From Escherichia phage NHEP11: 64,000 bases of DNA. Both the position numbers and the translations under genes were made by a program. This document shows positions 4,092 through 5,707 of the stretch, one piece after another. The notes beneath the pieces were generated by a model. That model had not been told where the DNA came from and ran no database searches. It saw only the letters and a list, made by a program, of their open reading frames with translations. Position 1 is the first letter of the stretch, and every line of letters begins with the position of its first letter. The stretch is taken from the sequence record PQ511149.1; one strand, given 5' to 3'.

Positions 4092-4991
4092 TTATTCCTC
4101 GATTACGACATCTTCGTATTTAGGTATATTATACGGTGAAGAAATTAAAGCATTAAAGTAGATGAACTCACCAAGACCTGGATGGAATACTTCTTCAGGA
4201 TTTTCGAAATATTGAATCTTCGGCCGTCCTTTAAGAATTTGATAGTACTCAGTTTTAGTTGGATTAAAAATTCGAATCAGCGCTTCTTCAGGATACTTAT
4301 TTCTGTCGAAACTATTATTTGGATCGGTTATATAAAGCGGTTGACCTAATTGAATTGCACATTCAACCACTTGTTCAAAACGATAGCATGGGTCACTAAT
4401 TCGAAATGGATGAAAAATACCATCTAGATGAATAGGAGCCAAATCACCTACAAAACGCTGCATGATGGAAGGACGTATAACTTTCTGGGTTACGATAATC
4501 TTATTACCATCTGCACCAGCGTTAACCAGCACTTCTTTTTGACGTTCATTCAACACAGTAGTTTGAAGTGAACGATTAACCGACAACATATCGGTTTTTA
4601 AGAATTCGTCAATATAAAAACGTGGTTTATTAGGGTCTGCAGTGATATTGAAATTGAATTCTACGTCAAAAGTGCCGTCATATCCAGTGATATCTGTGAT
4701 TAGAAAATCACAATCATAATAATCAATTAATGAATCAACCACAAATTCATTTTCAGACCAGAAATATTTACGAGTGTTATACGCGTTATCTTTATACCAT
4801 AATGGAACAAACTTAAATTCTGGGAAAAGACGTTCACATTCTTTAATATCAGATGCATTACGTGGATATGTAATCACATCACCTGGATTAGCACGGTGCA
4901 AATGAAGTTGGAAGTTTCCATCCTTAAGGATAGCATACTGTCCAGTTTCATAAGACCGCATACTCAAGATAGGTGCGCGGAAAATAGCCAT
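4092..4991 (-). CDS. hypothetical protein; candidate DNA-modification transferase (by position only)
   Basis: 299 aa; ATG start overlaps the stop of the upstream hydroxymethylase gene (coupled); no domain recognised. Confidence 0.5.
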   Translation of the reverse strand: MAIFRAPILSMRSYETGQYAILKDGNFQLHLHRANPGDVITYPRNASDIKECERLFPEFKFVPLWYKDNAYNTRKYFWSENEFVVDSLIDYYDCDFLITDITGYDGTFDVEFNFNITADPNKPRFYIDEFLKTDMLSVNRSLQTTVLNERQKEVLVNAGADGNKIIVTQKVIRPSIMQRFVGDLAPIHLDGIFHPFRISDPCYRFEQVVECAIQLGQPLYITDPNNSFDRNKYPEEALIRIFNPTKTEYYQILKGRPKIQYFENPEEVFHPGLGEFIYFNALISSPYNIPKYEDVVIEE

Positions 4992-5707
4992 TAGTCAAGG
5001 AATCCTTTAACATAATCAAAATCACGTTCAAACACATGGGCACTTACCATGGTATGAGTATAATCACCAACTTCTACACCACATTCTTTAGCGATATAAT
5101 GAAGTAATTTTCCTTGGAGATAAAAATCCAACTGCATAACAACAGCACAGTTCTGAGAACGCATATGACAGTGGGTATAAAGCTTACCATCACGAATATA
5201 ATAAGTCACTGAGTCAGTACATGGATATTCAAGTGATTCGTCCGAATCAAGCAAAGCCTGATCTGAACTTTCAAGAATTTGGAACACAACTCTTCGTGAA
5301 TTAGGTTTCTCTTTAAGTTCTTTGAGAAGAGCTGGTAACTGAGCCGCAATTCGTGGACCGTAGAAAGTGTTGAAGTTTGCAGGCAAAGCGTCTGATTTAG
5401 GTTTAGAAATAAATTTAGCAACGTTAGGATATGCCTTAAACGCTTCTTCTGCATCAGTACCACCAGAAATCATAAACTTCCAGAAGTCTTCGGCATATTC
5501 ATAAGAGATGCGGTTAATACGTGGGTCGGTCATTTTGAATGATGATGGAGTATCAACAACTACTGTCATAGACCCAATTTCATTACAACGTCCAATACGA
5601 GAATCAGTTACGAATTCTGGGTTTTCTAAAATTTCACGATTGACAGCTTTAAATGCGGATTGAAAATCTGCGGCTTTAATATATTTCATTGTGTTATGTT
5701 TTCCCAT
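4991..5707 (-). CDS. 42: thymidylate-synthase-family pyrimidine hydroxymethylase (dCMP hydroxymethylase-like)
   Basis: 238 aa; PCTDSVTYYIRD...HMRSQN...QLDFY resembles the T4 gp42 / thymidylate synthase active-site region (Cys nucleophile, MRS motif). Confidence 0.8.
   Translation of the reverse strand: MGKHNTMKYIKAADFQSAFKAVNREILENPEFVTDSRIGRCNEIGSMTVVVDTPSSFKMTDPRINRISYEYAEDFWKFMISGGTDAEEAFKAYPNVAKFISKPKSDALPANFNTFYGPRIAAQLPALLKELKEKPNSRRVVFQILESSDQALLDSDESLEYPCTDSVTYYIRDGKLYTHCHMRSQNCAVVMQLDFYLQGKLLHYIAKECGVEVGDYTHTMVSAHVFERDFDYVKGFLD

Follow-up and report, generated by a model that had tools for sequence, protein, structure and literature searches.

A thymidylate synthase-fold gene in the gene 42 slot of Escherichia phage NHEP11 very probably encodes a flavin- and O2-dependent 5-hydroxy-dCMP synthase

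Described enzymes acting at C5 of pyrimidine nucleotides

The dCMP hydroxymethylase gp42 of phage T4 (EC 2.1.2.8; PDB 1B5E; ternary complex in PMC6400193) has the thymidylate synthase (TS) fold, takes dCMP as its substrate and yields a product that becomes the attachment point for DNA glycosylation. It differs from the 5-hydroxy-dCMP (5hodCMP) synthases in that it employs methylene-tetrahydrofolate and water instead of flavin and O2, and in that its product carries a 5-CH2OH group instead of a 5-OH, to which the sugar is ether-linked. In E. coli TS (ThyA, EC 2.1.1.45), Asp169 contacts N3 and the 2-NH2 group of the pterin, and a dCMP hydroxymethylase signature proposed in 2019 combines an acidic, water-activating residue at the third position ahead of the catalytic Cys (Cys-3) with an S/T-x-Y motif (PMC6400193). 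MilA, the mildiomycin CMP 5-hydroxymethylase (PDB 5B6D, 5JNH), is a folate user with a ribonucleotide substrate and a hydroxymethyl product. ThyX also involves a flavin in its reaction at C5 of a pyrimidine mononucleotide; its fold is unrelated, it is without a catalytic Cys, uses methylene-tetrahydrofolate as carbon donor and makes dTMP, whereas in the 5hodCMP synthases the flavin is bound by a ThyA-fold enzyme.

The closest described enzymes are those of the RB69 type, which convert dCMP to 5-hydroxy-dCMP and not to 5-hydroxymethyl-dCMP (Lee et al. 2026, PMC13326640). For RB69, 5hodC (a nucleoside of 243 Da) and no 5hmdC had already been reported. When RB69 gp48 was produced in E. coli, with or without a dNMP kinase, 5hodC was found in the DNA; gp48 alone suffices, and the kinase, which converts 5hodCMP to 5hodCDP, raises the in vivo output, while T4 gp42 in the same assay gave 5hmdC (PMC13326640). 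Labelling with 18O2 increased the mass of 5hodC by 2, the oxygen coming from O2 and not from water, and purified gp48 was found to release FMN, which is loosely bound and lost with further purification (PMC13326640). The substitution called D169N was presented as the diagnostic residue of 5hodCMP synthases, and nine further D169N homologues that were tested all made 5hodC (PMC13326640). He et al. 2026, as cited in PMC13326640, are reported to have solved a flavin-containing crystal structure and to have reconstituted the enzyme in vitro.

Identity of the NHEP11 gene

The window, a stretch of 64,000 nucleotides of Escherichia phage NHEP11 (record PQ511149.1), belongs to an RB69-like Mosigvirus, with 97.7% DNA identity to RB69 over 3500-7700. 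The gene at 4991-5707 on the minus strand encodes a protein of 238 aa from an ATG start and sits between uvsX and gene 43, at the place that gene 42 has in T4. No second gp42 or td homologue was found in the 64 kb, so that this is the sole TS-superfamily gene of the window. Judged by sequence identity, its product is an orthologue of RB69 gp48 and of the HY126 enzyme (PDB 9IQC). It is identical to gp48 at 235/238 positions (98.7%), the only substitutions being S17T, S158T and K207N, and to the HY126 enzyme, whose sequence is that of PDB 9IQC, at 234/238, with 4 differences. The positions that vary among the three proteins (S17, E31, E87, S158 and K207) are all outside the signature, and position 158 is S or T throughout the family alignment. 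Cys163, Glu160, Asn186 and Asp194 are common to gp48, the HY126 enzyme (PDB 9IQC, 9IR2, 9IQU) and the NHEP11 protein, and the three genes occupy the same place in the same arabinosylation gene cluster. No mention of PDB 9IQC was found in the literature searched.

Based on this orthology and the Pfam match (PF00303), the gene very probably encodes a 5hodCMP synthase, a TS-fold dCMP C5-hydroxylase dependent on flavin and O2. The identity of the protein, its residue equivalences with their conservation and the gene context were observed in the present analysis; the product, the origin of the oxygen from O2, the bound FMN and the flavin crystal structure come from orthologues 98-99% identical to it, as given in Lee et al. 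and, for the structure, as cited there. Since the biochemistry and the crystal structure of 2026 cover proteins this close, the value of the finding is corrective: the gene should not be annotated as dCMP hydroxymethylase or thymidylate synthase, as is still done in most GenBank records and in the PDB names.

Signature residues

The protein contains the motif run YPC163TDS...HCHM-R183-S184-Q185-N186-CAV-V190-MQL-D194-FY, and the same residue equivalences were obtained from four separate alignments. These were a MAFFT L-INS-i alignment with T4 gp42 and E. coli ThyA, the reference sequences being 100% identical to GenBank M37159 (gp42) and to wild-type E. coli TS PDB chains; a family alignment of 123 sequences; an alignment of 153 sequences with distant cluster representatives; and HMMER pairwise alignments with solved TS and MilA chains. 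In the N-terminal third, the alignment to ThyA was unstable between runs, and Trp80, Trp83 and Arg21 were left out of the conclusions.

Asn186 (AAC, 5150-5152, minus strand) corresponds to Asp171 of T4 gp42 and Asp169 of ThyA, the pterin-binding Asp, and constitutes the published D169N signature. Val190 (GTT, 5138-5140, minus strand) takes the place of T4 Gly175 and ThyA Gly173, and Asp194 (GAT, 5126-5128, minus strand) that of T4 Asp179 and ThyA Asn177, the discriminator of cytosine versus uracil. The stretch E160-Y-P-C163 (5219-5230, minus strand) holds the Cys nucleophile (C148 in T4, C146 in E. coli) and the acidic residue at Cys-3 (D145 in T4, L143 in E. coli). Cys163, Glu160, Asn186, Val190 and Asp194 are invariant in 120/120 homologues, at identities down to 54%; this invariance rules out chance or a sequencing error as the origin of the Asn186 substitution. 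The phosphate-binding pair R138/R139, equivalent to ThyA Arg126/127, is invariant in the family alignment; Glu73, which corresponds to the Glu58 that activates folate, is retained here, with a family conservation of only 75%. In all, Asp194 indicates dCMP and Asn186 marks a switch from folate to flavin.

The preliminary description of this gene had placed the Asn of RSQN at the Asp of T4 RSND and ThyA RSCD, and the Asp of QLDFY at gp42 Asp179 and ThyA Asn177. Both placements were borne out: the reference motifs read as it gave them, the substitution is present in the multiple alignment with gp42 and ThyA, and Asp194 is set at the discriminator position by all alignments. Its use of this Asp as a pointer to dCMP also agrees with the published action of the orthologues on dCMP. 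The term gp42-like is apt as far as the TS superfamily, the gene 42 slot and Asp194 are concerned, but not for the degree of relatedness, the identity to T4 gp42 being only 24.8%. The deduced dCMP hydroxymethylation is not supported, RB69 gp48 making 5-hydroxy-dC in the assay in which gp42 makes 5hmdC (PMC13326640). The observation of the Asn was thus correct but already explained, since this Asn is the published hallmark of 5hodCMP synthases.

With T4 gp42 the NHEP11 protein has in common the Cys nucleophile, the Asp179-type recognition of cytosine, the acidic Cys-3 residue, the S/T-x-Y motif and the genomic slot, and it differs in having Asn and Val where gp42 has Asp171 and Gly175. With ThyA it shares the core fold, the catalytic Cys, the R-S motif and the Arg126/127 phosphate clamp, and it departs from ThyA by N177D, D169N, G173V and L143E and by the absence of the C-terminal tail. 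MilA, which among solved structures outside the family gives the best full-length match (E=6e-12, residues 14-237), resembles it in the Asp at the Asn177 position and the acidic residue at the Leu143 position (PMC13326640), but retains the equivalent of Asp169 (R-A-N-D in the HMMER alignment).

Alternative functions

A T4 gp42-type, folate-dependent hydroxymethylase that makes 5hmdCMP and tolerates an Asp-to-Asn change in its cofactor pocket would be consistent with the TS fold, the position between uvsX and gene 43, the retention of Cys163 and Asp194 and the continued presence of Glu73, and several GenBank records carry the name dCMP hydroxymethylase. The 2019 signature (PMC6400193) is found in the protein in conservative form, as E160 plus T114-F-Y116 (versus Ser94-x-Tyr96), and therefore does not separate the hydroxymethylases from the 5hodCMP synthase class. 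However, the NHEP11 protein matches T4 gp42 over 218 aa with E=4e-10 at the low identity given above, whereas gp42 orthologues, even in Aeromonas phages, are 55-97% identical to gp42; neither the pterin-binding Asp nor the Gly next to it is retained, their replacements being invariant; and RB69 gp48 made 5hodC, binds FMN and takes its oxygen from O2 (PMC13326640). A hydroxymethylase of this kind is very improbable. A conventional thymidylate synthase converting dUMP to dTMP, as the molecule name in PDB 9IQC, 9IR2 and 9IQU and most phage annotations have it, would accord with the conserved catalytic Cys and R138/R139 pair and with the Pfam Thymidylat_synt match (57.1 bits versus a cut-off of 24.3), which spans residues 122-235 only. 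The NCBIfam thymidylate synthase equivalogs, however, all score far under their cut-offs (top 70.3 bits versus 174.55), the Asn177 position holds Asp, the dCMP determinant, the Asp169 position holds Asn, the tail that closes over the folate in ThyA is absent, and the published product of the orthologue is 5hodC (PMC13326640), which leaves this function a chance next to nil.

The same hydroxylase class might instead act on another substrate (dCTP/dCDP or CMP) or with another cofactor (FAD, or free reduced flavin supplied by the host as co-substrate). The loose FMN of gp48, lost with further purification (PMC13326640), would fit such a variant, as would the CMP specificity of MilA as the nearest full-length solved relative outside the family, and a fusion to flavin reductase was found in 0/10 of the long relatives checked. 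Against it, gp48 alone gave 5hodC in vivo and was boosted by a dNMP kinase (PMC13326640), the enzyme was reconstituted in vitro by He et al., as cited in PMC13326640, and the Arg pair of the monophosphate type is invariant, and we consider this variant extremely improbable.

Proposed mechanism

In the favoured reading as a 5hodCMP synthase, the TS-fold enzyme would have swapped methylene-tetrahydrofolate for flavin and would hydroxylate dCMP at C5 directly with O2. The cytosine ring would be selected and protonated by Asp194, as by Asp179 in T4 gp42; Cys163 would add at C6 and render C5 nucleophilic; C5 would then attack an activated oxygen on reduced FMN, most likely a C4a-hydroperoxide, in place of a folate iminium; and elimination of Cys163 would release 5hodCMP. 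Asn186, in place of the carboxylate that binds pterin N3 and 2-NH2, and Val190, in place of Gly, may be read as a remodelling of the cofactor pocket. Three points of this scheme are our inference: that a hydroperoxide is involved, how Asn186 and Val190 contribute to flavin binding, and where the reduced flavin comes from. The Asn to which attention had been drawn would mark an unusual event, in which an enzyme of the TS fold left folate for flavin and came to hydroxylate dCMP directly, and 5hodCMP would be the starting base for an arabinosylated, restriction-resistant phage DNA.

Arabinosylation gene neighbourhood

After its release, 5hodCMP would be phosphorylated and would enter the DNA instead of dC, and its new 5-OH would then receive arabinose through a transferase from the adjacent gene; the isomerase, kinase/uridylyltransferase and phosphatase encoded nearby would supply UDP-arabinose. 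The isomerase, the nucleotidyltransferase/kinase, the HAD phosphatase and the transferase are in fact all located within 3542-10090, and the arabinose pathway gene set is syntenic in 22 related loci. The putative DNA arabinosyltransferase 1 (RB69 gp46:47) is a single intact ORF of 299 aa at 4092-4991 (minus strand), for which no Pfam or NCBIfam match was found. The RB69 record annotates two ORFs for gp46:47; this split was ascribed to a sequencing error by Lee et al., who modelled the product as a glycosyltransferase (PMC13326640). The gene at 3542-4090 (minus strand, RB69 gp45) is P-loop nucleotide kinase-like, with weak sequence-family matches, the kinase call coming from the structure matches of Lee et al. 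(PMC13326640).

On the other side of the hydroxylase gene, a HAD-type sugar phosphatase (RB69 gp51) is encoded at 7202-7603 (minus strand) and matches the NCBIfam capsule biosynthesis phosphatase TIGR01689 with E=1.9e-13; its analogue AfhF converts arabinose-1,5-bisphosphate to arabinose-1-phosphate. The intact ORF of 561 aa at 7588-9273 (minus strand, RB69 gp52:53) encodes a bifunctional sugar-1-phosphate nucleotidyltransferase and kinase, the analogue of AfhE, which makes UDP-arabinose. The arabinose-5-phosphate isomerase of the KpsF/GutQ/KdsD family (RB69 gp55) is encoded at 9455-10090 (minus strand), with NCBIfam matches to TIGR00393 (E=2e-32) and KdsD (E=7e-31).

The U32-family neighbour and chorismate mutase

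An extremely conserved Peptidase-U32-family protein (RB69 gp50) is encoded at 5985-7160 on the minus strand (Pfam PF01136, 42.2 bits versus a cut-off of 22.4). Its C197, C208 and C214 align with the four-Cys Fe-S motif, the second Cys being Gly203, and further invariant cysteines occur elsewhere, including a C-terminal CX4CX3CX2C; gp50 is probably an Fe-S protein. The Peptidase_U32 domain and 3/4 of the conserved Cys are common to gp50 and to RlhA, TrhP and UbiU-UbiV, from which gp50 differs in the Gly at the second motif position and in the extra CX4CX3CX2C; its identity to UbiU, UbiV, RlhA and TrhP of E. coli is 17-19%. RlhA makes 5-hydroxycytidine in 23S rRNA and requires prephenate and Fe-S clusters (PMC5727448).

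In 18/20 related loci of other phages, the U32 gene is followed by one for chorismate mutase. In NHEP11 this slot is occupied by gp49, an ORF of 79 aa at 5749-5988 (minus strand) that is unrelated to chorismate mutase. The possibility that gp49 is a diverged chorismate mutase, comparable to the one that Klebsiella phage KLB31 encodes at this place, was rejected: no Pfam, NCBIfam or BLASTP match was found, hhalign gave a probability of 0.3%, and there are loci in which a chorismate mutase occurs alongside a gp49-like ORF. A tblastn search found no chorismate mutase elsewhere in the 64-kb window, the sole match under E=0.01 (39543-39710, plus strand) being antisense to a 165-aa ORF and taken as chance.

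The pairing of U32 and chorismate mutase genes suggests a second route to 5-hydroxycytosine, dependent on prephenate and independent of oxygen. Tentatively, a dual route can be imagined in which the TS-like hydroxylase is the aerobic half, while cytosine nucleotides, or cytosine in DNA, are hydroxylated by gp50 with prephenate and not O2 as oxygen donor. It could find its parallels in RlhA and in the host pairs TrhO/TrhP and UbiH/UbiUV. Sister genera bring their own chorismate mutase, and this Mosigvirus, having lost the gene, would rely on host PheA/TyrA. If true, the dual route would enable these phages, whose hosts are facultative anaerobes, to replicate their DNA in fully modified form where oxygen is absent, and the pairing could open the question of how an O2-derived base modification is made in hosts growing without oxygen. 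Nothing relevant to a phage U32/chorismate mutase link was found in the literature searched, and the link is absent from the discussions of Lee et al. and the Thanatos paper. A strict correlation of the U32 gene with host oxygen is only partly supported: the gene is missing from the Acinetobacter phage cluster inspected, and Acinetobacter is not a top host genus for U32, yet 64 Acinetobacter phages carry the hydroxylase; the U32 gene is also missing from the E. coli Dhakavirus VR5.

Distribution of the substitutions among distant relatives

Asp at position 194 is present in 138/138 distant representatives. At position 186, Asn occurs in 71 of the 138, and position 190 is non-Gly in 71/71 of these, while Asp186 together with Gly190 occurs in 42/138; among the distant relatives without Asp at 186, Gly190 was found in 0/91. 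Exchange of the pterin-binding Asp for N, S, C or H is thus tightly coupled to loss of Gly173 across the wider superfamily, and Asn together with a non-Gly residue four positions downstream offers a practical discriminator of the class. Relatives in which residue 186 is Ser, Cys or His, for example P0164, P0138 and P0186, and those that pair Asp with a non-Gly residue, such as the Asp+Val+Glu intermediates P0141, P0167, P0191, P0218 and P0250, may catalyse still other chemistries. In the 10 long relatives scanned for fusions, the Pfam domains besides TS were histidine phosphatase (4/10) and MazG (1/10), with none in 5/10. The MazG domain, of the dCTPase type, is fused in the relative P0161, which is in keeping with action on mononucleotides.

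Identity and active site of the enzyme encoded at 4991-5707

The window, judged by its sequence, is from an RB69-like Mosigvirus: its segment 3500-7700 matches RB69 24006-28206 at 97.7% identity and the best-matching record at 98.5%. The gene at 4991-5707 on the minus strand, a single open reading frame with an ATG start encoding 238 aa, is the orthologue of RB69 ORF048c, which is located between uvsX and the DNA polymerase gene 43; in T4 that region contains gene 42. RB69 gp48 differs from the window protein at three residues (S17T, S158T and K207N) and the phage HY126 protein at four. 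PDB chain 9IQC_A is identical to the HY126 protein, 9IR2 has the same sequence, and 9IQU is an N-terminally shortened form.

The protein had been described preliminarily as a gp42-like dCMP hydroxymethylase. It shares 24.8% identity with T4 gp42 over 218 aa (E=4e-10), whereas genuine gp42 orthologues, those of Aeromonas and Klebsiella phages included, are 55-97% identical to T4 gp42, and orthology to gp42 was therefore rejected. The best gp42 match in RB69-like phages is the 25%-identical hydroxylase gene itself, and the 64-kb window contains no other gene of the thymidylate synthase superfamily. Pfam recognised the superfamily domain alone, at residues 122-235, and the NCBIfam thymidylate synthase models all scored far under their cut-offs. 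Among solved structures outside the hydroxylase's own family, the best full-length relative is MilA, a CMP hydroxymethylase. Orthologues are named in GenBank as thymidylate synthase, dCMP hydroxymethylase, deoxycytidylate 5-hydroxymethyltransferase or hypothetical protein, and 9IQC, 9IR2 and 9IQU are titled "Thymidylate synthase" in the PDB; hydroxylase activity is reflected in none of the orthologue names seen in either database.

The C-terminal half of the protein reads ...SLE160-Y-P-C163-TDSVTYYIRDGKLYTHCHM-R183-S184-Q185-N186-CAV-V190-MQL-D194-FYLQ..., with N186 encoded by AAC (5150-5152) and D194 by GAT (5126-5128), both on the minus strand. Residue equivalences were derived from four alignments: an L-INS-i alignment of the window protein with T4 gp42 (100% identical to GenBank M37159) and E. 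coli ThyA (a 100% match to PDB chains of wild-type E. coli TS), a family set of 120 homologues, 150 distant cluster representatives, and pairwise HMMER comparisons with solved chains of TS and MilA. In all four, C163 corresponds to gp42 C148 and ThyA C146, E160 to D145 and L143, N186 to D171 and D169, V190 to G175 and G173, and D194 to D179 and N177. E73 is the counterpart of the folate-activating Glu58; just 75% of the close homologues conserve it, and the N-terminal alignment to ThyA that places it is unstable. Since C163, E160, N186, V190 and D194 are invariant in 120 of 120 homologues, with identity down to 54%, the Asn186 substitution is not noise. The by-eye placement of this Asn, and of the Asp in QLDFY opposite T4 gp42 Asp179 and ThyA Asn177, is thus borne out by the multiple alignment with gp42 and ThyA.

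The reaction has been worked out on proteins that are virtually the same as this one. In RB69 DNA the arabinosyl groups are attached through an ether bond to 5-hydroxycytosine rather than hydroxymethylcytosine (Lee et al., NAR 2026, PMC13326640). In the same work, RB69 gp48 expressed in E. coli gave 5-hydroxy-dC in DNA; it sufficed alone, a phage dNMP kinase improved the yield, the added oxygen derived from 18O2, and T4 gp42 tested in parallel gave 5hmdC. The purified protein was yellow and released FMN (PMC13326640). The preliminary description was thus right to read dCMP as the substrate from the retained Asp194, and wrong to read the product as hydroxymethylated. Comparison of 12 residues near the substrate C5 found the ThyA Asp169 position to be consistently Asn in 5hodCMP-producing phages, and nine further diverse homologues chosen by this "D169N" diagnostic were all 5hodC producers (PMC13326640). 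As cited there, He et al. (Nat Chem Biol 2026) determined the structure of the HY126 enzyme with flavin by crystallography and reconstituted the reaction in vitro. In T4 gp42, Asp171 makes a water-mediated contact to the pterin carbonyl (PMC6400193). Asn186 is therefore the published hallmark of the cofactor switch; both the enzyme that the gene encodes and its signature are known, and the substitution is already explained.

Orthologues convert dCMP to 5hodCMP with bound FMN and oxygen from O2 (PMC13326640), and a course for the reaction can be proposed by analogy with TS-family chemistry. Cytosine would be bound and protonated by Asp194, Cys163 would add at C6, and the C5 carbanion equivalent would attack activated oxygen carried by the flavin. 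The likeliest form of that oxygen is the C4a-hydroperoxide of reduced FMN, seated at the TS pterin-stacking site; elimination would then regenerate the enzyme. We infer that the Asn186 carboxamide could pair with the isoalloxazine along its N3-H/C=O edge, a site at which a carboxylate and the carbonyls would clash.

Distant relatives and the limits of published signatures

A search of 1.84 billion proteins supplied the 150 top-ranking representatives for alignment, and classification was restricted to the 138 that keep the Cys and the R-S motif, all of which have Asp at position 194. Asn occupies position 186 in 71 of the 138, with V, T, I, L or M and never Gly at 190. Another 20 have Ser, Cys or His at 186 and a non-Gly residue at 190 (among them P0138, P0145, P0164, P0171, P0185-P0187 and P0192). 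Asp at 186 goes with Gly at 190 in 42, of which 39 have Asp at the 160 position, and with Val at 190 in five (P0141, P0167, P0191, P0218 and P0250), all with Glu at 160. By these counts, a near-perfect correlation links loss of the pterin-binding Asp with loss of the Gly four positions further on and with Glu, not Asp, at 160. Under the published D169N rule, the Ser/Cys/His-type and the Asp-Val-Glu relatives would be overlooked or put in the wrong class. A "hydroxymethylase signature" proposed in 2019 consists of an acidic residue at Cys -3 plus Ser/Thr-x-Tyr (PMC6400193). The window protein matches it with E160 and T114-F-Y116, and this signature fails to separate the two enzyme classes.

Four Asn-type homologues (P0124, P0126, P0127 and P0130; 427-463 aa) are fused to a histidine phosphatase (His_Phos_1) and a single one (P0161, 341 aa) to a MazG nucleotide pyrophosphohydrolase; none of the ten long relatives scanned is fused to a flavin reductase.

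Gene neighbourhood, the U32 gene and chorismate mutase

The minus-strand genes flanking the hydroxylase are predicted to complete the pathway. They encode gp45, a P-loop kinase-like protein (3542-4090); gp46:47, a putative arabinosyltransferase of 299 aa (4092-4991); gp49, of 79 aa (5749-5988); gp50, a peptidase-U32 protein (5985-7160); gp51, a HAD phosphatase (7202-7603); gp52:53, a bifunctional nucleotidyltransferase/kinase of 561 aa assigned to UDP-arabinose synthesis (7588-9273); and gp55, an arabinose-5-phosphate isomerase (9455-10090). Genes 46/47 and 52/53 are each one intact ORF in the window, whereas in the RB69 reference ORF046c/047c and ORF052c/053c are each split in two; the intact frames support the view of Lee et al. 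(PMC13326640) that the RB69 splits are sequencing errors.

The U32 gene has only a table label in Lee et al. (PMC13326640), "sugar or heterocycle reductase". It is more strongly conserved than the hydroxylase, with all phage homologues at least 80% identical (221 GenBank records and 15 IMG/VR loci). In the 20 other U32-bearing loci scanned (L004-L008 and L014-L028) it is in every case adjacent or close to the hydroxylase gene, and in 18 of them the small ORF after it is a type II chorismate mutase. All five chorismate mutase ORFs scanned exceeded the Pfam CM_2 gathering threshold, and their profile matches solved chorismate mutases (1YBZ at E=7e-16). Their invariant R, R, K, E, S and Q are spaced like the active-site residues of E. 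coli chorismate mutase. In Shewanella phage Thanatos-2 the pair stays together, detached from the hydroxylase; the Acinetobacter phage cluster inspected and one E. coli Dhakavirus lack the U32 gene.

U32 proteins are known as prephenate-dependent, O2-independent hydroxylases. One of them, RlhA, makes 5-hydroxycytidine in 23S rRNA and depends on prephenate as well as Fe-S clusters (PMC5727448), which makes the pairing suggestive. The phage U32 protein keeps three of the four motif cysteines and has an additional C-terminal CX4CX3CX2C motif. By analogy, and purely as a hypothesis, the pair might provide a prephenate-dependent anaerobic second route to 5-hydroxycytosine. No mention of such a route was found in the searchable literature, and of the leads presented here the pairing alone seems new.

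Chorismate mutase is missing from the window, where gp49 fills the slot that it occupies in sister phages, and it appears to have been lost from this Mosigvirus lineage. Kinship of gp49 with chorismate mutase was rejected, the two being unrelated by comparison; a gp49-like ORF and chorismate mutase occur together in four loci (L016, L021, L024 and L028). The gp49 family is confined to close relatives and includes many truncated forms, and in HY126 gp49 is annotated as only 40 aa. Elsewhere in the window, a 165-aa ORF at 39512-40009 on the minus strand (…GCNCFHTMGAGVAGQLAKAYP…), antisense to a dismissed tblastn match, has a sequence resembling that of a macro (ADP-ribose-binding) domain protein.
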